A stretch of DNA of 64,000 nt from positions 56,935 through 120,934 of the forward strand of contig CAVVFI010000007.1 of the NCBI GenBank assembly GCA_963747445.1, in the 5' to 3' direction. Numbering within the stretch: position 1 is the first letter of the stretch; each line of letters opens with the position of its first letter. The position numbers and the translations under genes were made by a program. This DNA comes from an uncultured Gammaproteobacteria bacterium (GTDB lineage Bacteria; Pseudomonadota; Gammaproteobacteria; Xanthomonadales; Xanthomonadaceae). Under the pieces are notes generated by a model that saw only the letters and a list, made by a program, of their open reading frames with translations, was not told where the DNA came from and made no database searches. This document shows, piece by piece, positions 11,350 through 57,875 of the stretch.

Positions 11350-11563
11350 GGCGATGGCGAATCGGCGGAGGGAATCGCGATTGTAGCGCCAGCGGCGTGA
11401 CCAAGGTCGTCGCGACTTCTGGCACTACGACATGTGCTGGTCCCGCGCCATCCTGCATGCATCGCAGGCAGGCACGACGGGGCACCCCTGTCGTTGGTCA
11501 TGGAAACCCATCGGCCCGTCCGCGCATCCCAACCAGTCATTCGACCACCTTCAGGAGCCACGC

Positions 11564-13822
11564 TTGAAATCCATCGCCCTGGCCGCCGTACTGACGGCAT
11601 GCATCCCTTTTGCCCAGGCCCATGCCGGGCAAGACGCGACGACAGGCACCGTGGATTATGTCCCGGGCGGTCGCATCCCGAAGCTGCAGGGCGGGATCAC
11701 GATCGACGGAAAGCTGGACGATAGCGCCTGGCAGGGCGCGCTGGTGCAGGAAATCGCCTACGACACCCAGCCCGGCGACAACACCGCCGCCCCGGTCAAG
11801 ACCGTCGTGCGCATCGGTTACACGGCCGATGCGTTGTACCTGGCCTACCACGCGCTGGATCCGGACCCGGCCTCGATCCGCGCGCACCTGCGCGACCGCG
11901 ATGCGATGTTCAACGACGATTGGGTCGGGGTGTTCCTGGATACCTTCAACGACCACCGTCGCGGCTACGAGCTGGCGGTGAATCCACTGGGCGTGCAGGG
12001 CGACATCATCCGCGACGAATCCAACACCGACAACCAGGAAGACGCAAGCTGGGACGGACTCTGGACCAGCGTCGGACGCATCACCGACATCGGCTACGAC
12101 GTCGAGATCCGCATCCCGTTCTCCACCCTGCGCTTCCCAGGGGGCGGTGGCGACCAGCAATGGGGCATCTCGCTGTACCGCAACTGGCCGCGCGACAAGC
12201 GCCACCAGCTGGCCAGCCACAAGGTGCCGCGCGATTCCAACTGCTTCGAATGCGAGTGGGGCAAGTACACCGGCCTGGCCGGTGCGCAACAGGGCCGAAA
12301 CCTGGAGGTGGTGCCGACGGTCACCATCGGCAAGGAACAGACGCGCGATGCAGCGGGCGAGCCGTGGCGCAGCGGCGACACGGCAATCGAACCGGGCGTG
12401 GACGTGAGTTGGGCGCCGTCGCCAAGCATGACCCTCAACGCGACCATCAATCCCGATTTCTCGCAGGTCGAAACCGACCAGCTGCAGCTGAGCTTCAACG
12501 ACAGCTTTGCGTTGTTCTACCAGGAAAAGCGGCCGTTCTTCCTCGAGGGCGCCGATTACTTCACCACCCAGTTCAACGTGCTCTACACCCGCCAGATCGC
12601 CGATCCCGACTACGGCTTGCGCGTGACCGGACGCAGCGGCGGCGGTACCTATGGCGCGATCGTTGCGCGCGATGCCACCACGCTGGTGCTGGTGCCGGGC
12701 GTGCTGGGTTCGGGCTTCGAGCAACTGGACCAGAAGGCCAACGTGGCGGTCGGCCGCTATCGCTACGACTTCAATACCCATTTAAGCGTCGGCGCGATCG
12801 GCACGTTCCGCCAGGGCGATGACTACGCCAACAACGTGGCCGGCGTCGACGCCCGCTGGCAGCAGGGATCGCACACGGCTACCGCGCAGTTCCTGCACAG
12901 CCAGTCCGAATATCCGACCGATATCGTGGACGTCTACCGCGACGAGCTCGGCGACGACCCGACGCCCTCCGGCAACGCGTGGCGCGCGGAATACGCCTTC
13001 AGCAACCGCAACTGGAACTTCGACGCCTGGCACCTGGACATCGATCCGGGTTTCCGCGCCGACCTGGGCTTCATGGGCCAGGTCGGTTACGACAAATCGC
13101 TGGTCGGCGGCGGACATACCTGGTATCGCGACGACAAGGCGTTCAATCGCGTCAACGTCTACGCCGACTTCGACATCACCCATCGCTTCGACGGGCAGCT
13201 GCTCGAGCGCGAGCTGGAGGCGCAGGCCAGCGTCCAGGGCCCCATGCAGAGCAGCCTCAACCTGCACGGCCTGACCCGGGTGCGCTTCTGGCACGGCGTC
13301 CTGTTCGACGAGCACTACGTCGACCTCAACACCAGCTACCGTCCCGGCGCCAACCTGCAACTGGGCGCCTACGTGCAGGCAGGCACGCTGATCGACCTGG
13401 CCGCGGACAAGACCGGCCGCCGCACGATGCTGGAGCTGTGGGGCAATGCCAGCGTCGGCCGAGGCGTGGCCCTGGACTGGGACCTGATCCGCCAGCGCAT
13501 GCGACGCGACGGCGGCACCGCATTCGAGGCCACGGTGCTCAACGCCGGCGGCAGCTGGCAGTTCGATCCGCGCCAGCGCCTGCGGCTGGTCCTGCAGGGC
13601 AGCGAAGTGCTGCGCGACCAGGCGTTGTATGCCGACCCCGTCGACGCCACCGCGCGCGACTGGGCGGCGCAGCTGGTGTATTCATACAAGGTCAACCCGC
13701 ACACCGCGATCTATGCCGGCGCGTCGTATGGCGCGTTCATGGACGACGACAACCCGGAGCTGTTCGGCAATACCCGCAACGTCTTCATCAAGATGAGCTA
13801 CGGATGGCAACCGCGCCGCTAA
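11564..13822 (+). CDS. DUF5916-like / CBM9-like domain outer-membrane protein
   Basis: TTG start after AGGAG, signal peptide, ITIDGKLDD CBM9-like N-terminus, NPDFSQVE and EKRPFFLEG motifs, beta-strand-rich C-terminus. Confidence 0.8.
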   Translation: MKSIALAAVLTACIPFAQAHAGQDATTGTVDYVPGGRIPKLQGGITIDGKLDDSAWQGALVQEIAYDTQPGDNTAAPVKTVVRIGYTADALYLAYHALDPDPASIRAHLRDRDAMFNDDWVGVFLDTFNDHRRGYELAVNPLGVQGDIIRDESNTDNQEDASWDGLWTSVGRITDIGYDVEIRIPFSTLRFPGGGGDQQWGISLYRNWPRDKRHQLASHKVPRDSNCFECEWGKYTGLAGAQQGRNLEVVPTVTIGKEQTRDAAGEPWRSGDTAIEPGVDVSWAPSPSMTLNATINPDFSQVETDQLQLSFNDSFALFYQEKRPFFLEGADYFTTQFNVLYTRQIADPDYGLRVTGRSGGGTYGAIVARDATTLVLVPGVLGSGFEQLDQKANVAVGRYRYDFNTHLSVGAIGTFRQGDDYANNVAGVDARWQQGSHTATAQFLHSQSEYPTDIVDVYRDELGDDPTPSGNAWRAEYAFSNRNWNFDAWHLDIDPGFRADLGFMGQVGYDKSLVGGGHTWYRDDKAFNRVNVYADFDITHRFDGQLLERELEAQASVQGPMQSSLNLHGLTRVRFWHGVLFDEHYVDLNTSYRPGANLQLGAYVQAGTLIDLAADKTGRRTMLELWGNASVGRGVALDWDLIRQRMRRDGGTAFEATVLNAGGSWQFDPRQRLRLVLQGSEVLRDQALYADPVDATARDWAAQLVYSYKVNPHTAIYAGASYGAFMDDDNPELFGNTRNVFIKMSYGWQPRR

Positions 13823-14007: not shown

Positions 14008-14759
14008 ACTTTGTACCCGGTGTGGATCGCGACGATGCCTGCATTGAGGTTGCGATAGCCGCAGCGCGCAAAACCCGCCGCCTCCATCATCGCCTTGAGC
14101 TCATCCTGCGGCGGATGCTTGCGGATTGACTCGGCCAGGTATTGGTAACTATCGCCGTCGTGCGCAAACAGCTTGCCCAGCCTCGGCAGCACCTTGAACG
14201 AGTGGAAGTCGTACACCGGCCGGAACCACTGGGCCGTCACCTGCGAAAACTCCAGTACCCGTGCCTGTCCGCCGACCTTGAGTACGCGCAGCATCTCGCG
14301 CAGCGCCGCATCCTTGTCGGTGACATTGCGCAGGCCAAAGGCGATCGTGACCAGGTCGAAGCTGGCATCGGGGAACGGCAGCTTCTCGGCATTGCATTGC
14401 ACATACTCAAGCCCGCGCACATTGCCGCGGTCGGTCATGCGGTCGCGGCCGACCGTCAGCATGCCGGCATTGATGTCCCCCAGCACGACCTCGCCCGTGT
14501 CGCCGACGCGATCCTTCAGCAGTGCGGCGATGTCGCCGGTCCCGCCTGCCAGGTCGAGCACGCGGTTGCCCTTGCCGACCTGCGCGGTGGCCACGAAATA
14601 ACGCTTCCACACCCGATGGATGCCCAGCGACATCAGGTCGTTCATCAGGTCGTAACTGCCGGCCACCGACGAGAACACCTCGCCGACGAGCTTCTGCTTG
14701 TCGCCAGTGGGGACTTCGCGGTAGCCGAAGTGGGTGGTGGATTTGCCGGAGTTGTCCAT
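14004..14759 (-). CDS. ubiE: Ubiquinone/menaquinone biosynthesis C-methyltransferase
   Basis: THFGY, YDLMNDLMSLGIHRVWK and VLDLAGGTGD motifs; 251 aa. Confidence 0.98.
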   Translation of the reverse strand: MDNSGKSTTHFGYREVPTGDKQKLVGEVFSSVAGSYDLMNDLMSLGIHRVWKRYFVATAQVGKGNRVLDLAGGTGDIAALLKDRVGDTGEVVLGDINAGMLTVGRDRMTDRGNVRGLEYVQCNAEKLPFPDASFDLVTIAFGLRNVTDKDAALREMLRVLKVGGQARVLEFSQVTAQWFRPVYDFHSFKVLPRLGKLFAHDGDSYQYLAESIRKHPPQDELKAMMEAAGFARCGYRNLNAGIVAIHTGYKV

Positions 14760-15032
14760 GGCCGGATTATCGCATCGCCGCGACGCCACGGGCGGCCGGC
14801 CAGCGGCGGCGCGGCTCGCGACCGGAGCCCTGTCCCGCCCGCCGCGCGTTCATTGGCGTGGGCACGATCGATGGCAACGGTGTCCCAACGCGGCCCGGAC
14901 CGGTGCCCGGCTCGTCGACGTCCGGCACTTTGTCGAGGTAGCCGCCCGGGGCCTTGGCGAGCGTCCGGGCGTCACCCCGCCGGGCATGCGCCGGCCCCGC
15001 GGAGTGCGGGTGCCGACGCCGCGGGAGTGGAC

Positions 15033-16268
15033 TTACTGCGCCGGAACGGGGTTTTCGTGGATGAAGTTGATCACGGCACGTGCGTCGTCGGCCGCCTGGC
15101 TGAACGCGTCCACCTGCGTGCCGGTGTAGTCCGTCCCGCCGAAGATGGCGACCATGATCGGTTCGGTGACCAGCGTATAGGTGCCGTCACCGTTGCTTCT
15201 CAGGTAGGTGACGTCGCCGGTGTAGGTGGCCGCGCGGTCATAGGTGGCCGATGAGAAGTCGAAATAGGTCTTGCCATCCGCGCCCACGATCGGCTGGAGG
15301 CCGTCGACCCCGAGGATGCTGTCCATGTACACCACCATGTCCTGGTTGATCGATCCGGCCTTGTCCGACGCGGCGGCCAGGAACGACGCCGCCATCAACA
15401 GGTCGGCATTGGTCATCGTTGTGTCAGCCAGGAACGACAGCGATCCCAGGGACACACCGTCCTGGAGGTCCAGCCCCGGCAGGTAACCGTTTTCCATCAG
15501 CCTGATGTAGAGGGCGAGGTTTTCCAGCGGCGAGTCGATGGTCTTCTCCACGCCATCGATGGTGACCACGATGCGGCCCGCTTCATCCACACGGATGGCG
15601 GTGGCGGCATTGAGGGTGGCCAGCGCCTCGTCGTAGGACTTGTCGGTGACCTTGTTCGGCGAACGACCAACACTCAAACGCCCGAACTCGACTGCTTGCG
15701 CCAGGTCGGCGTAGCCATCCTCGATCGCGCCTTCCTCGTCGATCGGAATCGGGTTGCCATCGGCATCGACAGGCTGCACGTGACCGAACTCGTCCAGGAT
15801 CGGGACACCGTTGTCGTCGCGCAGGATCACGTAGAGGTCGCCGTAAAGATCGCCCTTCTTGCTGCCGGCTTCCCCGGGCTTGCCCGTGGTCTTGCCACCG
15901 CCATACTTGGGCCCGCGGCGATCGGAATCCTCCTCCTCTTCGGGGCCGACGTCCTCGCGCAGCACTTTCGACTCCACGGACTGGCTGCCGCTGTCGCCCT
16001 GGCCGCGCTTCCCGGCACCCTGGCCGGCATTGCCCTTTTTGCCCTCCTGGGCGGCCGAATCCTGGCCCCCGGAGCCGTGGCTGTCGCCGCTGGCATGGCC
16101 TGAATCGTGAGTATCCTGGGCATGGGCCGATGCGATCGGCGACAACGCCCCGGGATAGGCAGCGCCCAACGCACAGCAGACGGCCAGCGAGAGTGCGGTG
16201 GCGACCAGCCTTCCCCGGTAAGGAGTGGCGCGGCGGGTGAGTGCTGACGGTGTGGTGTTCTTGTTCAT
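15033..16268 (-). CDS. Hypothetical exported acidic protein
   Basis: AGGAG RBS, signal-like N-terminus ending AHA, Gly/His/Ser-rich linker and Asp-rich globular domain; 411 aa. Confidence 0.85.
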   Translation of the reverse strand: MNKNTTPSALTRRATPYRGRLVATALSLAVCCALGAAYPGALSPIASAHAQDTHDSGHASGDSHGSGGQDSAAQEGKKGNAGQGAGKRGQGDSGSQSVESKVLREDVGPEEEEDSDRRGPKYGGGKTTGKPGEAGSKKGDLYGDLYVILRDDNGVPILDEFGHVQPVDADGNPIPIDEEGAIEDGYADLAQAVEFGRLSVGRSPNKVTDKSYDEALATLNAATAIRVDEAGRIVVTIDGVEKTIDSPLENLALYIRLMENGYLPGLDLQDGVSLGSLSFLADTTMTNADLLMAASFLAAASDKAGSINQDMVVYMDSILGVDGLQPIVGADGKTYFDFSSATYDRAATYTGDVTYLRSNGDGTYTLVTEPIMVAIFGGTDYTGTQVDAFSQAADDARAVINFIHENPVPAQ

Positions 16269-16338
16269 GATGTGCTCCTGGAGGGTTTCATCGTGGTGGA
16301 AGCGCACGTTCGGGCTGTTTGCCGAGGGTGCGATGGGT

Positions 16339-18870
16339 TCAGAACCGGATGCCCAGCCCGATGCGGGCCAGGTACTGCTGGTTGTTGAAGCTGATGTCGT
16401 CGGGTTTCGCGTGGGTCGTGCTGAAGGCGATCGAGTCGTAGGCCGTCCGGCTGTAGTCCATCCGGAGGAACAGGTCGCTCGACAGCGGGGTTTCCAGTCC
16501 GACCCCGATCCGGGTGCCCGGGAGGGTGTCGTCACGGTCCACCCACGCGTCCGGGTTCTCGCCTTTTTCGTAGCGGACGTTGAATCGGCCGCGGACCCGG
16601 CCCGCGCGCGCATACAGCAACGCCCCGCCGCGCGTGGCATAGCCCATGCGCAGTGCGACGCCGGCGCTGCTGCGGGACTCGATCGAGAACTGGCGGCCCT
16701 CGGGCAATCGATCGTGGTGCCACGACGCCTTGCTCGAATCGGCTTCCAGTTCGACACCGGCATAGAACGGACCCCATGCCCGCCCGTAGCCGGCAAAGGC
16801 ACCGAAATCGAGTCCGCGCCCGCCGAAATCGGCCTCGAAGTCCGTCAGCGTCGGCGCATTGCCCTGGCGCATCACGGCCTGCAAGGCGCTGTGCACACGG
16901 TCGTCCCCGCCCTGTGCGCCGGCATAGAAGCCGCCCGGGCGGCGCGCATCGCCCGCCAAGGGCAGTGACGGGCCGAAGCGCCAGCCGATGCCCAACTGGA
17001 ACCGGCCCTGGCTGCCGGAGAAACGATCACTTTGGGGAGCGTCGTAGGTCACGTCGTAGCCGGCGTAAGGCGCCACCTCGTAACGGGCCCGCGCAAAGGC
17101 GTGCGCCGATACCGGCACCTCGAGGCCAAGGCCGAAGCTGTTGGCGGAGGTGCGGTCGCCATGTTCGCTGGCCAGGCCTTCATCGGTCACATAGCTGCTG
17201 TCGAAGTCCGCCCGCCGGCGCCCGATGCCCAGGGTCGCCAGCGCATGCTCCGGCAGCACCAGGCCGGCAAGCAGGGTCAGCCCGGTTTCCCGTCCCCCAC
17301 CAGTGGCGAAGATGCGGCTGTCGGGCGACTTGTCATGGCGCCAATCCGCGCGCGAACTTGTGGCGTCGAACTCGGCCGCCAGGTAGAAGCGCCCGAACGA
17401 CCGGCCATAACCGGCAAACAGCGCGCCGGTGCCGCCAGCGCCGCTGAAATCGGCGAGATAGTCTCCGTGCTCCCCGCGCGCCCCCGTCACGCGGGTGCCG
17501 AGCACGTCGTAACCCAGCGACGTCCCGACGTAGAAGCCGGACGGGCCGGTGGACGTAGCGAAAGGACCCGAAGCAGCCGCGGATGGGTCGGCGCCGTCGC
17601 TTGCCGGCAGCAGCGGACTGCCCGCGCCATCCAGGCGCAACCCGACATAGAACATGTTGCGGTCGTACTCGGCACCGGCCTCGTCGGAGCGTCGCTGCAA
17701 CAGGCGATAGTCGGCATCGACCTGCAGGCGACGGCTGAGCCGGTAGCTCAAGCCGATGCTCGGATTGGCGATGTCGTCGGTGCGGTCGATGCCGTTGAAA
17801 TCGCTCCGCGCCAGCGTGATGCCGGCCCGCGCCGACAGCCGCTCGTTGACGCGCCGGTTCACCCGCAGGGCCAGGCTGGTGTCGAGGTAGCCGGAGGCGC
17901 CGGGAATCGTCGTGTCGTAGATCGCCCGTTCCAGCGAGGCCGAGACGAGGGTGGCGGGCGTCACCTGCCAGCGCAGGGTCCCGCCCAGGGTCGGGACGCC
18001 GACATCCTCGAATACCGGGTCGTCGTAGCGCTGCGAGAGCCAGCCGGCGTAGACCTCGCCCTGCACCTTCCCCGCCCCATGGCTGGACAACCCGAGCGCC
18101 CAGGTGGCGCCGGTCGAACCCCGCTCGAACCCGTCGTCATCGATACGCCACTGGTAACGGCGTCCGTCCAAGGTGCCCTGCACGAACAAGTCCGCACGGG
18201 GAAGCAAGGCATAGCCCACCCGTACGCCGAAACCGCTCACATCGCGATTGCGATCCTGGTTGTTGATCCGGATGCCCTGGGCGTCGAGCACGTTTTCGAA
18301 GCGCAAGGCCCGGTAGGTGCCGCCCAGCCGCACCATCCACTGGGCGCCGCGATGGGCGAAGCCGACATGGGCGTTGCGCTCTTCAAAACGCGTGGGCTCG
18401 ATGCCGAAGACATCATCGGGCGACGTGCGATCCTCGTGGTCGCGACCAAAACCCAGGCCGCCGAACAGCTTCGAAGTCGCCGACAGGCCAAGGTTGCCCG
18501 AAGCGTCGATGCGGTAATCCAGGCTGTCTTCGGCATCGTGGTCGCGGTACCGCGTATCAGTGAGCGAGGCATCCACGGTCGCGTCTCCCCATGCGCCGAC
18601 CCTGCGCATGCGCAACGATGGGTTGGTCTCCAGGTACACGTCGCCCTCGGGGGCTGCCGGCGTGGCGAACACGTTGCTATCGTGACCCAGCCCGATGCCC
18701 AGCCCGGGAACGAAGATCCAACCGTCAGGAAGCGAAGCAGGCGGCGTGGGCGGCGTTGACGACGGCAATGGCCCGTTGGCCGACTGCGCGCAGGCGACGG
18801 CTGGTGCGACCAATGCCAGCGCCAGGGCAACGCAAAGCACGCGTCGAGCGAGCCTGCCGCGGACCCTCAT
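16339..18870 (-). CDS. Outer-membrane protein: BBP2-like large barrel plus two tandem OmpA/Omp25-like small barrels (start 18870 or 18918)
   Basis: Signal peptide ending ACA; three beta-signal-like ends (FYVGLRL, FQLGIGWRF, LARIGLGIRF); two GFY(V/A)G repeats; terminal Phe. Confidence 0.8.
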   Translation of the reverse strand: MRVRGRLARRVLCVALALALVAPAVACAQSANGPLPSSTPPTPPASLPDGWIFVPGLGIGLGHDSNVFATPAAPEGDVYLETNPSLRMRRVGAWGDATVDASLTDTRYRDHDAEDSLDYRIDASGNLGLSATSKLFGGLGFGRDHEDRTSPDDVFGIEPTRFEERNAHVGFAHRGAQWMVRLGGTYRALRFENVLDAQGIRINNQDRNRDVSGFGVRVGYALLPRADLFVQGTLDGRRYQWRIDDDGFERGSTGATWALGLSSHGAGKVQGEVYAGWLSQRYDDPVFEDVGVPTLGGTLRWQVTPATLVSASLERAIYDTTIPGASGYLDTSLALRVNRRVNERLSARAGITLARSDFNGIDRTDDIANPSIGLSYRLSRRLQVDADYRLLQRRSDEAGAEYDRNMFYVGLRLDGAGSPLLPASDGADPSAAASGPFATSTGPSGFYVGTSLGYDVLGTRVTGARGEHGDYLADFSGAGGTGALFAGYGRSFGRFYLAAEFDATSSRADWRHDKSPDSRIFATGGGRETGLTLLAGLVLPEHALATLGIGRRRADFDSSYVTDEGLASEHGDRTSANSFGLGLEVPVSAHAFARARYEVAPYAGYDVTYDAPQSDRFSGSQGRFQLGIGWRFGPSLPLAGDARRPGGFYAGAQGGDDRVHSALQAVMRQGNAPTLTDFEADFGGRGLDFGAFAGYGRAWGPFYAGVELEADSSKASWHHDRLPEGRQFSIESRSSAGVALRMGYATRGGALLYARAGRVRGRFNVRYEKGENPDAWVDRDDTLPGTRIGVGLETPLSSDLFLRMDYSRTAYDSIAFSTTHAKPDDISFNNQQYLARIGLGIRF

Positions 18871-19113
18871 GCTGGTGGTGCAAAACAGAAGCGTCGTGCT
18901 TGGTGGTGCCGATGGCATTGCGATCCCCCCGGGAAACAAGTCCAGTCTGGAGGTCGCCTGTGGGGGCGGCATTGATACAGGTCAAACAAGGTGCCGGGCC
19001 TTCCGGCACGACATCAGCGCTTCCAGTTGACTTGCATCAACATGCCACCGTTTCGCCGGGTACAGGCTCGATGCGCCGACAGCAGTCGGCCCCATTCCAT
19101 CGAGGTGGTCATC

Positions 19114-19593
19114 GTGAGCAACACATCCTTCCTGCTGCTGGTCTCGCTATCGTTCGCCGTGTCCCTTCCGGCGATCGCGCACTCCCCACTGGCTGCCGCG
19201 GCGGATTCGGCCAGCATTGCCCAGGACCGGGACCAGGATCGCTCGGTGGACGGGGACCGGGATAGGGACATGGACCAGGACCGTGACCAGCGCAGCGACC
19301 AGGACCGCCTGCAGGACCGGGATCGCGATGGCGTCCAGGTCTACGGGTACGATCTGATGACGCCCGCCGAACGCATCCGCTACCACGCCCAGATGCGCAG
19401 CCTGGCGACCCAGCAGGAACGCGACCGGTTCCGCAAGGAGCACCATGCATTGATGCAAGAGCGCGCCAGGCAACGCGGTGTCAAGATCCCCGACGCGCCG
19501 ATGGAGCCGATGCACCAGCACCCGCAAGCGCCCAGGAACCAGCCGCGCCTGCAGCAGCCAACCCCGCAGGAATCAAGGCGACGCCGCAATTGA
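19114..19593 (+). CDS. Hypothetical exported Gln/Asp/Arg-rich protein
   Basis: GTG after GAGGTGG; signal peptide; QDRD repeats; helical [11 protein letters not shown]...[10 protein letters not shown] segment. Confidence 0.78.
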
Positions 19594-19676
19594 GCGGATG
19601 GCTTCCGGAAATACCACCTGCGTCCGCCTTTCCATGGAGCGCGGACGCCCATCCCATTGCATGATGGCCGCCTGGA

Positions 19677-19822
19677 GGATGTACCGGCCCAGATCCCGAT
19701 TCTGCACCTGCTCGTCCAGGTGGGCGTCGACGTAGGCGCGGTCGATGGTGACGGTGTCGCCGTCGCGGTCCGGGCTTCATAGCCGAGTGTGTCCAGCAGG
19801 CGCTCGCAATGAAGGCGCCGTG
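19677..19822 (-). pseudogene. Degenerate duplicate of the hslU 3' end
   Basis: 19677-19806 aligns to 21775-21905 with about 11 mismatches and a 1-bp gap (manual count); weaker homology continues to RRLH. Confidence 0.9.
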
Positions 19823-20061
19823 GCTGGATGGCCAATCCCTTGTCCGCCTTGGGGAGACGTGGCTGCTCGCCCAGGCTCCGCGCGTACCCGCCGCAGGCCG
19901 GCAGTGCACTACCGGACACGGTTGCCGGCGAATTGCCCGGCAGGCCAGCGGATCAATTTTTTAGCGCGCCCGCGCCTCAAGCAGATCAACCGCGTGCGAA
20001 GCCGGGATCGACACGCAACTTCCCATACCGGTCATACTTGAATTGTCTCGGGGGATCATCC

Positions 20062-21750
20062 ATGACAGCCAGCCACCCATTGCGCGAGCAGCCCCTGTTG
20101 ATTGCCGACGAGGCCACGCTCACCCACTACCTGGAAGGCTATCCCCGCGATAGTTTTGCCTCCCTCCGAGGCAGCGAGGGGATCGACGAGCAAGCCTGGG
20201 CGGCACTGGACAGCGACACCACCCAGGAAACCTACGACCGGGCACGACAGCTGGGGTTACCCTTGGTGCGCCTGGGCGCGCTCGGCCCCGACCCCAAGGC
20301 CACCGCCTTGATCACGCCCCAGGTGGCACGCCAGTTCCGCGCCGTGCCACTGCGCGCCAACAACGGTGTGGTCGCGATGGCGATGGAGGATCCGGGCGCC
20401 AGCAATGTCCACGCGATGCTGGATTTCCTCAGCCGCGAGCGTGTCATCGCGATGGTCGCGACGCCGCGCGACATCCGCGAATGCATCGCCCGCTGCTACG
20501 ATCGGGTCGAAGACGGCCAAATGTTGCGGCAGCTCGGGCTTGATCCACTGGCACGCACCGTCGAAGCCTCGGAGGAGGAAGCCCGGCGCCTGGCGGCAGA
20601 AAAGCCCGTGGTCGGCCTGGTGCATGCCCTGATTACCAACGCCGCCGCACGCCGCGCATCGGACATCCATTTGCGGCCGGGTGAGGACGGCACCGATGTC
20701 CTCTACAGGATCGACGATGAAATGATCCCGGTGCGCCATCTCCTGCGCGCCCTGCATCCGGCGGTGGTGAGTCGCATCAAGGTGCTTGCCAACATGAACC
20801 TGGCCGAGCATCGCAAGCCCCAGGATGGCCGCACCACGTTCACCATGCCCGACGGCAGGAATGTCGACTTGCGCATCTCGGTCCTGCCAGCCGTGTTTGG
20901 CGAGAGCGTGGTGGTGCGCCTGCTGGACACGCTGGAGGGGCTGTGGAACCTGGACCAGCTTGGTCTTTCCGACAAGGATCGGCAGCGTATCGATGACGTG
21001 ATGTCCCGCGACCACGGCATGTTCCTGACCACGGGACCGACCGGGTGCGGCAAGTCGACGACGCTGTACGCAATGCTGCTGGAACTGCGCAAGCAGCGCA
21101 TCAACATCCTCACCATCGAGGACCCGGTCGAGTTCCACATCGCCGACCTGCAGCAGATGCAGGTCAATCGCGCGGCTGGCTTCACCTTTGCCACGGCGAT
21201 GCGCAACTTCCTGCGTCACGACCCGGACGTGATCATGGTGGGCGAAATACGTGACGAGGAGACCGCGCAGATCGCAGTGGAGAGCGCGCTTACCGGTCAC
21301 CTCATGCTCAGCACCCTGCACACCAATACCGCGGCCACCACGGTCACGCGGCTGCTCGACCTGGGCGTGGAAGCCTACCTGCTGCGCGCATCGCTGCTGG
21401 CAGTGATGTCGCAGCGGCTGGTGCGGTTGACCTGCGAACATTGCCGCCAGGTCGAAACGGCCGATCCGCACATGCGCGAGGTGCTTGGCGTCGGCGCGGA
21501 TGAAGTCTTCTACTCAGGGGCAGGCTGTCCGCTATGCGAGGGACTCGGCGTGAAACGACGACGCGCGGTCTATGAGTTGATGGTGATATCGCCGCGCTTG
21601 CGCACGCTGATCGTGCGCGACGCCGAAGCGGACAGGATCCACGAGGCAGCGCTCGAGGAAGGCATGGTGCCGCTCACCCAGGCAGCCATCACGTTGGCGC
21701 GTACCGGGGTGATTTCACTTGCCGAAGCATGGCGGGTGCGCGCGGACTGA
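20062..21750 (+). CDS. GspE/PilB-family secretion ATPase (orphan)
   Basis: ASDIH, RIKVLANMNLAEHRKPQDG, Walker A GPTGCGKST, Walker B VIMVGEIRD, two CxxC motifs. Confidence 0.95.
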   Translation: MTASHPLREQPLLIADEATLTHYLEGYPRDSFASLRGSEGIDEQAWAALDSDTTQETYDRARQLGLPLVRLGALGPDPKATALITPQVARQFRAVPLRANNGVVAMAMEDPGASNVHAMLDFLSRERVIAMVATPRDIRECIARCYDRVEDGQMLRQLGLDPLARTVEASEEEARRLAAEKPVVGLVHALITNAAARRASDIHLRPGEDGTDVLYRIDDEMIPVRHLLRALHPAVVSRIKVLANMNLAEHRKPQDGRTTFTMPDGRNVDLRISVLPAVFGESVVVRLLDTLEGLWNLDQLGLSDKDRQRIDDVMSRDHGMFLTTGPTGCGKSTTLYAMLLELRKQRINILTIEDPVEFHIADLQQMQVNRAAGFTFATAMRNFLRHDPDVIMVGEIRDEETAQIAVESALTGHLMLSTLHTNTAATTVTRLLDLGVEAYLLRASLLAVMSQRLVRLTCEHCRQVETADPHMREVLGVGADEVFYSGAGCPLCEGLGVKRRRAVYELMVISPRLRTLIVRDAEADRIHEAALEEGMVPLTQAAITLARTGVISLAEAWRVRAD

Positions 21751-23173: not shown

Positions 23174-23244
23174 CGGGCTGTTGTATGCGGGCTGTTGTAT
23201 GCGGGATGTTGAATTCGGGATGTTGAATGCCGGGCTGTTGTAGG
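23174..23244. repeat. 14-bp tandem repeat (CGGGCTGTTGTATG / CGGGATGTTGAAT[T/G]) x5
   Basis: Read directly; last unit merges into the TGTAGG start of the adjacent REP. Confidence 0.85.
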
Positions 23245-27070: not shown

Positions 27071-29176
27071 TCAGGGGCCGGCTGCCGGTGCATCGACGCC
27101 GAGCTGGTCGAGCAGGAAGGCATACATCTCGGCCAGTTCGCGGTAGCGCCGGAAGCGCCCGGACTTGCCCCCGTGCCCGGCATCCATGTTGGTCCGCATC
27201 AGCACCGGATGGGACGACGTGTCCAGGTCGCGCAGGCGCGCCACGTATTTGGCTGGCTCCCAGTACTGCACCTGCGAGTCCCACAGCCCGGTACCGATGA
27301 ACATCGCCGGATACGCTTGCGCCACGAGGTTGTCGTAGGGCGAGTAGGACAGCATGTAGTCGTAGTACTGCTCCTGCTCCGGATTGCCCCACTCGTCGTA
27401 CTCGTTGGTGGTCAGCGGGATGCTGGCATCGAGCATGGTGGTGACCACGTCGACGAATGGCACCTGCGACAGGATCACGCGGTAAGTGTCGGGCGCCATG
27501 TTGGCGATCGCGCCCATCAGCAAGCCGCCGGCACTGCCGCCGAAGGCACCGACGCGATCGGGCGCGGCATAGCCCTGCTCGACAAGGAACCGTGTGACGT
27601 CGATGAAATCGTTGAACGTGTTCTGCTTGTGCAGCAGCTTGCCCTCGTCGTACCAGGCGCGACCCATCTCCTGGCCGCCGCGGATGTGCGCGATGGCATA
27701 GACCATGCCGCGATCGAGCAGGCTGACGATCGGGCCATTGAAGGCCGGATCCATCGACAAGCCGTAGCTGCCGTAGGCGTACTGCAGCAACGCTGCAGTG
27801 CCATCACGCCTGAAACCTTTCCGGTAGACGATGGAAACCGGCACCTTGGTGCCGTCGCGCGCGGTGGCCCACTGGCGCTCGGTGACGTACTTGTCCGGGT
27901 CGTAGCCCAGCACCGGTTCGCGCTTGAGCAGCTTGCGCTCTCCGGTCTGCGTATCGACTTCGTAAGTGGTGCCCGGGGTGGTCAGCGAGGTGTAGCTGTA
28001 ACGCAGCCAGGATGTATCGGGCTCGCTGTTGATCGACAGGCCGATCGAATACGCGGGCTCGTCGACCTCGACGAATGCATCATCGCTACCGTCGCGCAGC
28101 AGCCGGATGCGCTCCAGGCCGCCGGAACGCTCCTCGACAGCAGTGAAGTCGTCGAACAATTCGAAACCTTCGATGTAGACGTCGTCGCGGACCGGGACCC
28201 ATTCACGCCACTGTTCGCGCGACGTGGCGTCGTCGGCTGCGGTCACCAGCTTGAAGTTGGATGCCGGCTTGCCGTCGGCACCGGGGGCGTTGGTGCGGAT
28301 GACCCAGCGGTCGCCGAGGTGGTCGGCGTCGTATTCGACATCGCGTTCGCGTGGCGCCAGGACGGTGAACGCTTGCGGGTCTGCAGCAGGCGCGAAGCGC
28401 ATCTCACTGGTGACGGTGCTCTCCACGCCGATGCAGATGTACCTGTCGTCCCGGGTGCGCTCGATGCCCATGTAGAAGCTGTCGTCGTGCTCCTCGTAGA
28501 CCAGCACGTCATCGGCCACGGGCGTGCCCAGGACGTGCTTCCTGACCCGCACCGTAAGCAGCGTGTCGGGATCGTTTTCGACGTAGAACAGCGTCCGGTC
28601 GTCGTCGGCCCAGACCAGGTTGGCGGCGACGCCGGTGATCGTGTCGGGATGGAGCTCGCCGGTGGCCAGGTCGCGGAACCGGATGGTGTATTGCCGCCGC
28701 CCGACGGCATCTTCGGCCCAGGCCAGTTGCGTGTTGTCCTGGCTGATCGCGTAATCGCCGACGCTGAAATAGTCCTTGCCTGCCGCCATCGCGTTGACGT
28801 CGAGCAGGACTTCCTCCGTCGCCCGCATATCGCCTTTGCGGCGCGCATGGATCGGATAGTCCTGGCCGGTTTCGTAACGCGCGTAATACCAGTAGCCGCG
28901 CTCGCGATAAGGCACCGAACTGTCGTCCTGCTTGATGCGCGCGACGATCTCTTCGTAAAGCTGGTCCTGCAACGGCTTGAGCGGTGCCATGAATGCGTCG
29001 GCGTAGGCATTCTCAGCCGAGAGGTACGCCAGCACCTCCGGCGCCTTCCGGGTGTCGTCGCGCAGCCAGTAGTACTCGTCGGTGCGGCTGGCGCCGAAGG
29101 GGGCGCTGACTTCGTGCGCTCTCTTCGCGGCGTCCGGCGGTGCTGGCAGGTCGATGGGTTGGGACTTTTCGGTCAT
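27071..29176 (-). CDS. ptrB: Oligopeptidase B (S9A, PtrB-like)
   Basis: RTDEYYWLRD, GGSAGG, DSQVQYWEPAK and AGHGG motifs; start MTEKSQ at 29176. Confidence 0.92.
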   Translation of the reverse strand: MTEKSQPIDLPAPPDAAKRAHEVSAPFGASRTDEYYWLRDDTRKAPEVLAYLSAENAYADAFMAPLKPLQDQLYEEIVARIKQDDSSVPYRERGYWYYARYETGQDYPIHARRKGDMRATEEVLLDVNAMAAGKDYFSVGDYAISQDNTQLAWAEDAVGRRQYTIRFRDLATGELHPDTITGVAANLVWADDDRTLFYVENDPDTLLTVRVRKHVLGTPVADDVLVYEEHDDSFYMGIERTRDDRYICIGVESTVTSEMRFAPAADPQAFTVLAPRERDVEYDADHLGDRWVIRTNAPGADGKPASNFKLVTAADDATSREQWREWVPVRDDVYIEGFELFDDFTAVEERSGGLERIRLLRDGSDDAFVEVDEPAYSIGLSINSEPDTSWLRYSYTSLTTPGTTYEVDTQTGERKLLKREPVLGYDPDKYVTERQWATARDGTKVPVSIVYRKGFRRDGTAALLQYAYGSYGLSMDPAFNGPIVSLLDRGMVYAIAHIRGGQEMGRAWYDEGKLLHKQNTFNDFIDVTRFLVEQGYAAPDRVGAFGGSAGGLLMGAIANMAPDTYRVILSQVPFVDVVTTMLDASIPLTTNEYDEWGNPEQEQYYDYMLSYSPYDNLVAQAYPAMFIGTGLWDSQVQYWEPAKYVARLRDLDTSSHPVLMRTNMDAGHGGKSGRFRRYRELAEMYAFLLDQLGVDAPAAGP

Positions 29177-29298
29177 CGGATGGTGGGGGCCGTCATGGAG
29201 GTGGGATGTTCTGGATCCGGGGGCAGGATCTTGGGTAGCTGCTTCTCGATGCATCCATTCTAGGAGCATCCGCCTGTTGCCGCGGCACACCCGGCGTT

Positions 29299-29370
29299 GT
29301 CGTTCCGGCGAAAGCCGGAACCCATCTTGATCCTGAAGACACTGGGTCCCTGCTTTCGCAGGGATGACGG
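29299..29370. repeat. CGTC-type REP doublet
   Basis: gtcgttccggcgaaagccggaaccca ... tgggtccctgctttcgcagggatgacgg. Confidence 0.8.
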
Positions 29371-29436
29371 CAAGGCGATTGGACAACGCCAAGCCTGGCG
29401 ATGGATGGATCAAGGCGCCACAAACCAAGCTACAAG

Positions 29437-29571
29437 GCTTCGTGCTTCGTGCTTCGTGCTTCGTGCTTCGTGCTTTGCGCTTTGTGCTTTGGGCTTTGGA
29501 CTTTGGCTTTGGACTTTTGGCTTTTGGCTTTTGCCTTTTTGCTTTTGGCTTTTGGCTTTTGGCTTTTGGCT
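29437..29571. repeat. Heptamer array drifting from (GCTTCGT)5 to (CTTTTGG)n
   Basis: About 19 units read directly. Confidence 0.92.
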
Positions 29572-29909
29572 CTACGTGCCAACCCAACCACCGACATCAT
29601 CCGGAAACCCGGCGGGCGGCGGGCATGGATGCGGCCGTTTTCGGATCGAGCCAAGGGTGAGTCGGTGCGGCTTGCGAGCCATTGGCTTGCGCACCGGCGA
29701 ACGCACGCGCCGCTGGCGCGGGCCGGTCTTTGGCGGCGTTGCCGTCAAAGGCGAGTCCGGAAATCGCGATACAGCTGCCGATCGTGGAGGCGCCGTGTCG
29801 GGGAAAGGCGTTTTCTTTGGTTCGTTTCTTTTGCGCCTTTCCAAAAGAAATGTGCCCGGCCGCGGAGCGGTCGGAAGCATTTGATCTTGCGGACAAAGGG
29901 CAACGTCCT

Positions 29910-56526: not shown

Positions 56527-57875
56527 GACCGCCAGCCCACGACGCGGCGGTCGTAGCGCTGCGCCGCAAGCCCATCATCGGCCCGGGCGACGCCGCCGCC
56601 TCGACCACGGCGTTCGGCTTGCCCGGCGATGGTGGCTGCGGGCGTTCGCGCCTCACGCAGCGCCATGCCCATCAGGATGCCGACCAGGATCGCGTACAGG
56701 CCGGCGGTGAGCTGATGGGCGAACATCGACTGGGTGAGTCCACACAGCGTATAGGCGGCCACCACCATCGCACCGGCCCAGGCCGCGCCGACGGGTCGGC
56801 GGCGCAATCGTGCCGCGCCGATCAAGCGCACGAACCAACCCAGCGGCAAGCCGTACAGGGCGATGATCGCCAGGATGCCGGGCAGACCCATCGTCGCGGC
56901 CCATTCGGCCAGGTCATCGTGCGCATGGCCTAGATGGCACAGCTGCTGCTTCGCCCCATCGCGGCATTCGGGTTCGTCGCCGATCGCCTGGTTGAAGTTG
57001 CCGACCCCGACGCCGGCCAGCGGATGATGCAGGAAGGTCTTGCCCGCGATCGTCAACAGCTCCAGGCGTGCACCCATCGACGTATCCATGTCGCCAAGCT
57101 CGTAGCGATCAAGGTCCTGCTGCAACTCCTCCACGCGCGTCTGTTCGCTCAGTGCGGGGACGACGAGCACCAGCACCGTCGCGGCAGTGAACATCAGCGC
57201 AATCACCAGCAGCCGCGACCGACCGGTGCGCCAACCGTACCCAAGGGCGAGGACCACCGCCAACGAAGCCAGGCCGGGCACGACCCCGCGACTGCCGCTC
57301 ATGACGATGCATGCCACGCCAAGCAACAGTGCGCCCATGGTCCAGGCCCATCGTCGCGCCGGCGAGCAGAATGCGGCCAGGACCATGAGGACCAGGACGA
57401 CATCGGCGAACACGATGGCATTGCTCCACCCGTCGGCTCGTTGCGCCCCGCCCAGCACCTGCCATGAGGCCAGCACGCATGCCGCCGCCAGGCCGGCCAG
57501 TGCGCCCAACCACAGCGCAGTGCGCGGCACCCGCAGAGCGTATGCCCACAATGCGCAGCAGGGCAGCACCAACAATCGCGTGCGGGTATCGATGGCATCC
57601 CAACCCTGGCCGGACAGGTGCATCGAGGCCACGACCAGCGCCACTACCCCCAGCGCGAGCAATACCAAACTTGAAAGCGGCGCTGCGATGCGCCTGGCTT
57701 CGGCAAGAACGGCCTTGGGTTGCAACAGCGTGGAGGCAATCATCAGGATCGCGAATGGCAACAAACCAGCGGGCATCGTCAATGCCAACGCCGGCAGGCA
57801 GAACAGCGCCGCCGCAGCGATCGCCCGGGACGCGCTGCGCCGGTTCCCGGGGGAGCGCATCACCATGGAAGGCAT
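56475..57875 (-). CDS. O-antigen ligase family protein (WaaL-like)
   Basis: Multi-TM protein; SGSRG, SMGARLEL, GVGVGNF and HAHDD Wzy_C-like motifs. Confidence 0.88.
   Translation of the reverse strand: MPSMVMRSPGNRRSASRAIAAAALFCLPALALTMPAGLLPFAILMIASTLLQPKAVLAEARRIAAPLSSLVLLALGVVALVVASMHLSGQGWDAIDTRTRLLVLPCCALWAYALRVPRTALWLGALAGLAAACVLASWQVLGGAQRADGWSNAIVFADVVLVLMVLAAFCSPARRWAWTMGALLLGVACIVMSGSRGVVPGLASLAVVLALGYGWRTGRSRLLVIALMFTAATVLVLVVPALSEQTRVEELQQDLDRYELGDMDTSMGARLELLTIAGKTFLHHPLAGVGVGNFNQAIGDEPECRDGAKQQLCHLGHAHDDLAEWAATMGLPGILAIIALYGLPLGWFVRLIGAARLRRRPVGAAWAGAMVVAAYTLCGLTQSMFAHQLTAGLYAILVGILMGMALREARTPAATIAGQAERRGRGGGVARADDGLAAQRYDRRVVGWRSYSPVATCDARSRRYFR

Follow-up and report, generated by a model that had tools for sequence, protein, structure and literature searches.

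The 64,000-nucleotide stretch analysed here (the window; positions 56,935–120,934 of contig CAVVFI010000007.1, from an uncultured gammaproteobacterium of the Xanthomonadaceae) carries on its minus strand a gene for an outer-membrane protein predicted to contain three β-barrels (16339–18870, stop codon included), referred to here as the barrel gene. Directly downstream on the same strand lies a gene for a 411-residue, Sec-exported protein of an unnamed family (15033–16268), referred to here as the partner. Together they are a conserved two-gene module. The barrel gene was delimited from its open reading frame (ORF), Pfam matches, homologues and an AlphaFold2 model. The ORF spans 16339–18972, within which the ATG at 18870, the start taken in a preliminary description made from the letters and their translations, gives a protein of 843 residues. 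Its signal peptide (residues 1–28, 18787–18870), MRVRGRLARRVLCVALALALVAPAVACA, read from the sequence by eye, has a basic n-region, a hydrophobic core and A-C-A ahead of Q29; AlphaFold2 places a helix at residues 4–21, with a low predicted local distance difference test score (pLDDT).

The first module of the mature protein (residues 51–413, 17632–18720) belongs to the BBP2_2 family. Profile PF10082 matches residues 50–413 nearly end to end (profile positions 12–376 of 378) with 256 bits against a cut-off of 23.7 (E = 6e-76). This stretch ends in NMFYVGLRL and is followed by linker 1 (residues 414–444, 17539–17631), 31 disordered residues rich in Ala, Gly and Pro, with Ser. Beyond it lie two units of about 200 residues, which start G-F-Y-V/A-G (GFYVG and GFYAG) and end in LGIGWRF and IGLGIRF, respectively: the first 8-stranded module (residues 445–632, 16975–17538) and, after linker 2 (residues 633–645, 16936–16974), the second (residues 646–843, 16342–16935). 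They are termed unit 2, scanned as residues 414–632, and unit 3, scanned as residues 633–843. Pairwise alignment of the two gives 32% identity over 199 residues (E = 5e-25). Unit 3 alone passes the OMP_b-brl profile PF13505 (38.8 bits against a cut-off of 28.7), to which the whole protein scores 78.8 bits over three stretches. OmpA_membrane (PF01389) gives 27.2 bits for the full chain, yet none of the matching stretches reaches the cut-off by itself; unit 3 alone has 15.2 bits against 21. The signal peptide, the linker and the start and end motifs had all been pointed out in the preliminary description, and the motifs are conserved in the family; its reading of the first part as a BBP2-like barrel and of the rest as two homologous 8-stranded repeats is likewise borne out.

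A word-indexed search returned 36 full-length homologues with the identical Pfam combination and 33–70% identity, from Rhodanobacter, Dyella thiooxydans, Xanthomonadaceae and Guyparkeria. When 1.84 billion cluster representatives were searched exhaustively with a profile, at least 115 proteins from gamma- and alphaproteobacteria match end to end, in the same order of modules. Further homologues, from Porticoccus, Roseovarius/Thalassovita, Rhodospirillales and Sphingorhabdus, came from a scan of species-representative genomes, as did one on a 4.9-kb contig assigned to Thermoanaerobaculales, perhaps through a binning error. Cultured hosts comprise Dyella thiooxydans, Dyella lutea, Rhodanobacter aciditrophus, Guyparkeria, Sphingorhabdus sp. 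M41 and Roseovarius. G-F-Y-x-G is nearly invariant at the start of both units, and all 36 homologues from the word-indexed search end in R-F.

Strand layout and barrel closure

The AlphaFold2 model of the barrel protein, run with the alignment of 36 sequences, has a mean pLDDT of 85.4 and a predicted template modelling score of 0.79. Strands were assigned by DSSP. Residues 51–413 contain 18 strands of 12–15 residues each, residues 445–631 contain 8 strands of 19–23 residues and residues 646–842 contain 8 strands of 18–25 residues; the gaps between them, residues 414–444 (pLDDT below 50 at 419–435) and 632–645, are free of strands. On this pattern the layout is 18-8-8, in agreement with the three barrel-sized modules proposed earlier. 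All 34 strands carry a nine-residue amphipathic belt within 0–5 residues of the periplasmic end. Because the strand count of each module is even, both linkers should be periplasmic. The linkers are the least conserved parts of the chain (0.19 for linker 1 and 0.30 for linker 2, against about 0.5 for the barrels) and vary in length within the family from 22 to 31 residues and from 12 to 17 residues, respectively. The last residue of unit 3 is an invariant Phe and unit 2 ends in W-R-F; the 18-stranded module ends in Leu, which is not aromatic. The signal peptide, the even strand numbers, the amphipathic belts and the C-terminal aromatic β-signal fit the general features of outer-membrane barrels.

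No solved structure covers the whole chain: a Foldseek search of the Protein Data Bank (PDB) gave template modelling scores normalized to the query of at most 0.26. The best partial matches were the 18-stranded OccK/OpdK and AlgE, and also PgaA, with target-normalized scores of about 0.45–0.47. Searches of PDB sequences with both halves of the protein by phmmer returned nothing at E ≤ 1.

Covariation was analysed in 133 full-length sequences (effective number about 115) by ladder scores from mutual information with average product correction (MI-APC) and mean-field direct coupling analysis (DCA), an analysis that is underpowered and weakly informative at this depth. The strand pair that would close the second 8-stranded barrel (b27–b34) ranks at the 99th percentile by MI-APC and the 95th by DCA, and the pair that would close the first (b19–b26) at the 89th and 98th. 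The pairs that straddle the linkers, b18–b19 and b26–b27, rank at the 20th and 24th percentiles by MI-APC and at the 26th and 54th by DCA.

The chain very probably folds as three separate barrels, each with a C-terminal β-signal of its own: an 18-stranded barrel of BBP2_2 type and, connected to it and to each other by flexible linkers in the periplasm, a pair of paralogous 8-stranded barrels of OMP_b-brl type. Some results weigh against this assignment. The pair that would close the 18-stranded barrel (b1–b18) has a modest rank, at the 91st percentile by MI-APC and the 81st by DCA; b1–b34, the pair that would close one giant barrel, stands at the 92nd percentile by MI-APC; the power of the whole analysis is low; and unit 2 alone has no Pfam match at E ≤ 1. 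Closure is, moreover, inferred indirectly, from the match of the modules to autonomous families, the even strand counts, the belts, the weakly conserved linkers and the existence of natural relatives consisting of the 18-stranded barrel alone (18-only).

The moderate MI-APC score of b1–b34 would suit a single 34-stranded barrel, and an experimental fusion of two barrels can yield one larger barrel (cited in PMC8346858). Against such a barrel stand the 4th-percentile rank of the same pair by DCA, the lack of covariation across the linkers, their disorder and poor conservation, the difference in strand length between the modules (12–15 against 18–25 residues) and the autonomous 18-only relatives; no evidence for a single barrel emerged. 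Nor does the chain appear to be a product of frameshift or misassembly, since the homologues that match end to end are uninterrupted and independent contigs from a soil metagenome cross linker 1 (17539–17631) and linker 2 (16936–16977) without insertions or deletions. Linker 2 is identical in the independent contig that spans it, and across the gene these contigs differ from the window by 17 nucleotides and 12 amino acids, with no stop codon or frameshift, so that no stops separate the units. An artefactual fusion or a giant barrel is thus scarcely credible and largely refuted already.

The preliminary description had found the architecture unfamiliar; it is in fact catalogued. Solan, Pereira, Lupas, Kolodny and Ben-Tal (Solan et al. 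2021; PNAS 118:e2104059118; PMC8346858) listed 12,643 predicted multi-barrel proteins, grouped into 34 architectures that mostly combine 8-stranded barrels with one larger barrel through linkers of 22 ± 13 residues. Their ‘18-8-8’ family holds 48 proteins from 14 orders of alpha-, beta- and gammaproteobacteria; it was given no functional or genomic-context analysis, and no contact-map test, because only families of more than 50 sequences were so tested. The proteins of the present study, which may belong to that family, resemble it in having several non-overlapping full-length matches to barrel families, linkers of about 12–31 residues, in keeping with the published lengths, and a scattered distribution in Proteobacteria, a likeness of architecture and taxonomic spread. 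The multi-barrel layout is therefore known as a kind, and would not surprise a specialist as such; the feature is real and less novel than was first thought. The apparent novelty lies in the partner gene, in the variants with permuted barrels or with the 18-stranded barrel alone, and in the contrast to the polysaccharide-linked relatives described below. The main text of PMC8346858 mentions neither a conserved partner gene nor the two variants, 8-8-18 and 18-only with a partner. A literature search on PF10082/BBP2_2/DUF2320 returned no relevant paper, and no follow-up on 18-8-8 multi-barrel proteins was found.

The two small barrels resemble other OMP_b-brl barrels (OmpA transmembrane domain, Omp25, OmpX/Ail) in their eight strands, G-F-Y-x-G start and terminal aromatic β-signal, and differ from them in their tandem arrangement behind a large barrel, the lack of an OmpA_C domain and a conserved extracellular hairpin tip, W-x-H-D-(K/R)-x-P-x-x-R. 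Surface loops are usually variable. In the model their strands of about 20 residues have about twice the length needed to span the membrane and should project some 10 residues past it, which suggests a protrusion similar to that of OmpX/Ail.

Several variants of the family were also encountered. In one metagenome-assembled genome (MAG; locus L065) the 18-8-8 gene is split into several overlapping ORFs by frameshifts, through either pseudogene formation or a long-read assembly error. Circularly permuted relatives have the order 8-8-18 (P0194, P0238 and P0244; loci L075 and L076). Further fusions on the same 18-stranded barrel (P0298, P0281, P0276, P0258 and P0290), some of which may be gene-calling fusions, include barrels extended by a C-terminal module of about 650 residues resembling another large barrel, a 2,103-residue protein with a long repetitive N-terminal region ahead of the 18-8-8 part, and one protein with a TolC-like N-terminal half ahead of the 18-stranded barrel.

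The partner gene and its neighbourhood

The barrel and partner genes are separated by a 70-nucleotide spacer (16269–16338), with AGGAG 8 nucleotides ahead of the partner ATG and no terminator-like site between the genes; a promoter and terminator scan of 14700–19900 found nothing beyond shuffled expectation. The signal peptide of the partner ends in A-H-A before a Gln. In the AlphaFold2 model, built from 41 sequences, residues 17–144 are disordered (pLDDT below 50), residues 145–200 are β-rich with moderate confidence, and residues 205–405 form an α/β domain predicted with high confidence. On pLDDT and composition, residues 50–144 (15837–16121) were delimited as the disordered N-terminal region, rich in Gly, Ser, Asp, Lys and His; the two structured segments make up the conserved region (15036–15836). 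Across the family the disordered region contains 27% Gly, 14% Ser, 10% Asp, 7% Lys and 5% His. Invariant residues cluster in 139–200 and in the motifs IDSPLENLALY, SDK, YDR and DDARAVIxFxH. The most conserved stretch (139–200) reaches only moderate confidence in the model of the monomer, a hint that this segment folds on binding.

The partner has no match in Pfam or NCBIfam, and all 986 of its homologues are unnamed or ‘hypothetical’. No match to its fold was found by Foldseek at E < 0.1 (best E = 0.14 against the PDB and 0.15 against BFVD), and its profile matched no PDB sequence (best E = 1.1). In a Logan contig of soil-metagenome run X1, a 9-nucleotide in-frame deletion polymorphism lies at 16208, in the His/Gly-rich stretch at the mature N terminus of the partner and just outside 15837–16121; it is consistent with length variation of a low-complexity region.

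Among 32 loci that encode 18-8-8 proteins (slightly fewer when duplicates of one contig or protein, such as L003 and L016, are discounted), the partner adjoins the barrel gene in 31: directly downstream on the same strand in 30, and divergently upstream in one (L025). At the single exception the contig ends 204 nucleotides past the barrel gene. At one of the two 8-8-18 loci (L076) a partner with 40% identity lies directly upstream of the barrel gene, in reversed gene order; at the other (L075), two shorter paralogues of the partner domain (262 and 306 residues) lie on the opposite strand and there is no full-length partner. Three 18-only loci from gammaproteobacterial MAGs (L029–L031), with barrels about 35% identical to the BBP2_2 module of the window, are each followed by a partner, which places the partner with the large barrel and not with the 8-stranded units. 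A full-length partner was present at none of 38 more distant 18-only BBP2_2 loci (23–32% identity). Guyparkeria carries two partner paralogues in tandem. As the flanking genes vary between taxa, only the pair itself is conserved.

This conservation bears on whether the three barrels have any joint function at all, or make up a structural or general-porin protein that arose by chance fusion and has a merely syntenic neighbour. Multi-barrel proteins are regarded in PMC8346858 as non-essential products of frequent lineage-specific fusion, and 18-only versions do occur. The pair is nevertheless kept across alpha- and gammaproteobacteria while other flanking genes change, it persists even where the barrels are rearranged within the chain and the two genes have swapped places, and both small barrels carry conserved extracellular tips, which would be unusual for ligand-free loops. 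A chance fusion with no joint function is thus very unlikely.

Apart from a small secreted protein and a clade-limited copper ATPase, no other conserved neighbour was found at the 31 module loci; the remaining ‘clusters’ of neighbours proved to be antisense shadow ORFs in GC-rich DNA. In the window the small secreted protein is encoded divergently from the barrel gene (18991–19593, plus strand); it has a repeat region rich in Asp, Arg and Gln (DRDQDR...), and its conserved C-terminal helix motif ends in RQRG. At 9 of the 31 loci, Porticoccus included, this motif is found again no more than about 2 kb from the module, which would make the protein a facultative third component. Neither Pfam nor NCBIfam has a match for the protein; its C-terminal motif loosely recalls periplasmic stress proteins of the LTxxQ type.

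At four loci (L001, L010, L011 and L013; Dyella and other Lysobacterales) a MerR-type regulator and a copper-type P-type ATPase (YHS, HMBD and E1-E2 domains) lie directly upstream of the module, and a CopD gene lies about 5 kb away in Guyparkeria. Just past the cleavage site, most partners carry H-x-x-G-H-like repeats (His is present in 38 of 41), and the hosts include acid- and metal-tolerant genera. The pair could accordingly be a metal-handling module, in which the His/Asp-rich region of the partner would bind copper, zinc or nickel and the barrel would serve as a route or anchor for uptake, efflux or sequestration. Three partners contain no His, however, no known metal-binding domain was detected, and the ATPase adjoins the module in one clade only (4–5 of 31 loci), being absent from the window itself and, beside the module, from other clades. 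We consider a metal-handling role quite unlikely.

Relatives and candidate roles of the pair

Barrels of the BBP2_2/EpsL/Wzp kind with 18 strands have been tied to polysaccharide secretion with truncated outer-membrane polysaccharide export (OPX) proteins (Saidi et al. 2022, PMC9603273). The 38 distant single-barrel loci conform to this: downstream of the barrel gene they have a short OPX gene (Poly_export and SLBB domains) and a Wzc-like co-polymerase gene (Wzz, GNVR and AAA_31), often with sugar-nucleotide enzymes, and 27 of 33 have the OPX. The barrel protein of the window shares with such porins its BBP2_2 membership, the 18 predicted strands and the loop motifs HEDRTSPDD and DRDRD, and differs from them in its two added barrels, the lack of OPX or sugar-gene neighbours and the unrelated partner of about 400 residues. 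The likeness to EpsL proposed in the preliminary description accordingly holds at the level of the family and fails at that of orthology (52.5 bits against the cut-off of 275 for the EpsL equivalog TIGR03014) and of a polysaccharide locus. No OPX homologue was found in the whole 64-kb window, and no OPX, co-polymerase, glycosyltransferase or sugar gene is conserved beside any of the 31 module loci.

These relatives raise the alternative that the barrel is still an exopolysaccharide export porin, for which the partner would be a periplasmic adaptor replacing the Wza-like OPX, with the cargo genes elsewhere in the genome. The loop motifs and the reported role of such barrels agree with it, as does the place of the partner gene immediately downstream of the barrel gene, which is that of OPX in the relatives. 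Besides the missing export genes and the TIGR03014 score, the proteins themselves argue against it: the Gly/His-rich disordered leader of the partner has no counterpart in OPX proteins, and the partner was rejected as a cryptic relative of OPX/Wza after hhalign of its alignment with 12 OPX neighbours gave a probability of 0.45%. On balance an export porin with a substituted adaptor seems unlikely.

The explanation that we favour overall, at a little over an even chance, is that the pair forms a three-barrel outer-membrane channel or dock with a co-inherited client. The 18-stranded barrel belongs by descent to a family of porins that dock a Wza-like periplasmic protein and pass a polymer, and would have been re-paired with the partner as its cognate client. 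The partner would enter the periplasm by the Sec pathway and either dock to the 18-stranded channel or thread its disordered leader through it, so as to be retained at the cell surface or exposed there, with no dedicated inner-membrane component. The 8-stranded barrels would act as accessory modules in cis, stabilizing the pore or providing a surface platform for the partner; as 18-only loci with a partner exist and the 8-8-18 order occurs, they would be helpful rather than obligatory. This re-pairing, with the partner docked or threaded and held at the surface, is tentative and falls short of an even chance. The conserved stretch of the partner, the long strands and conserved tips of the small barrels and the fact that these barrels can be lost or moved all fit a client-and-dock role, without being tests of it.

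Four considerations count against the proposal of a client and its dock. The position of the partner gene suits a periplasmic adaptor as well as it does a translocated client. HEDRTSPDD and DRDRD are common to the polysaccharide-type relatives (23–32% identity) and are therefore not specific to the partner. Synteny demonstrates functional linkage and not mechanism, contact between the two proteins or the location of the partner. Finally, the only sequencing runs found to contain the locus are DNA runs of a soil metagenome.

In its strongest form, the pair would be a hitherto undescribed, self-contained system of the outer membrane for protein display or secretion, in which the leader of the partner threads the channel and the fused 8-stranded barrels serve as an extracellular docking platform; we regard this as possible, if doubtful. 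There would be a functional analogy, and no more, with TpsB/TpsA, Slam and its surface lipoproteins, and FapF/FapC, as two-gene units made up of a barrel and a protein exported by Sec that lack a conserved component in the inner membrane. No relationship of sequence or domains joins the pair to these systems, POTRA, DUF560, TPS and Fap domains all being absent, and translocation in the present case is hypothetical. Were the display reading true, a multi-barrel outer-membrane protein would for the first time have a functional reason for its layout, and the partner family, with about 1,000 homologues and what would be a new fold, would gain a role.

To our knowledge, neither a structure nor a function has been established for any multi-barrel outer-membrane protein, such proteins being known to us only from the 2021 computational catalogue. 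The 18-8-8 family is a well-defined case among them, with a confident model, cultured hosts and natural ‘experiments’ in the form of the 18-only and 8-8-18 variants, and its strictly co-inherited partner gene offers an immediate functional handle that makes the module directly testable. Should the partner prove to be a client of this protein, the module would show how a polysaccharide-porin scaffold came to serve a protein, and for what reason barrels become fused in cis. If it is not, annotation still gains, from ‘outer membrane beta-barrel protein’ and ‘hypothetical protein’ to a recognizable two-gene module.

Other features of the window

The remaining neighbours of the module in the window are housekeeping genes, among which ubiE and a gene for a MshE/GspE-type ATPase were confirmed by Pfam; others, recognized by eye from their translations, are presumably hslU, hslV, xerC and dapF. 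The MshE/GspE-family secretion ATPase (19828–21750, plus strand; T2SSE and MshEN domains) lies between hslU and the barrel operon, is not accompanied by further genes for type II secretion or type IV pili and is not conserved beside the module elsewhere. On the other side, two genes off beyond ubiE, a 796-residue protein with CBM9_1 and DUF5916 domains is encoded at 11432–13822 (plus strand); it, too, is not conserved near the module elsewhere.

Two tandem repeats lie farther from the module. A GCTTTGT-like heptanucleotide is repeated about 16–19 times at 29436–29571, just upstream of a large ORF (27071–29587, minus strand) that we take by eye to encode an S9 prolyl oligopeptidase or oligopeptidase B; the repeat creates spurious ORF extensions on both strands, rich in Lys, Pro and Ala or in Phe, Trp and Leu. 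A 14-nucleotide unit, CGGGCTGTTGTATG, is repeated 4.9 times at 23174–23242, in the spacer that separates the hslV-like gene from the hslU-like one.

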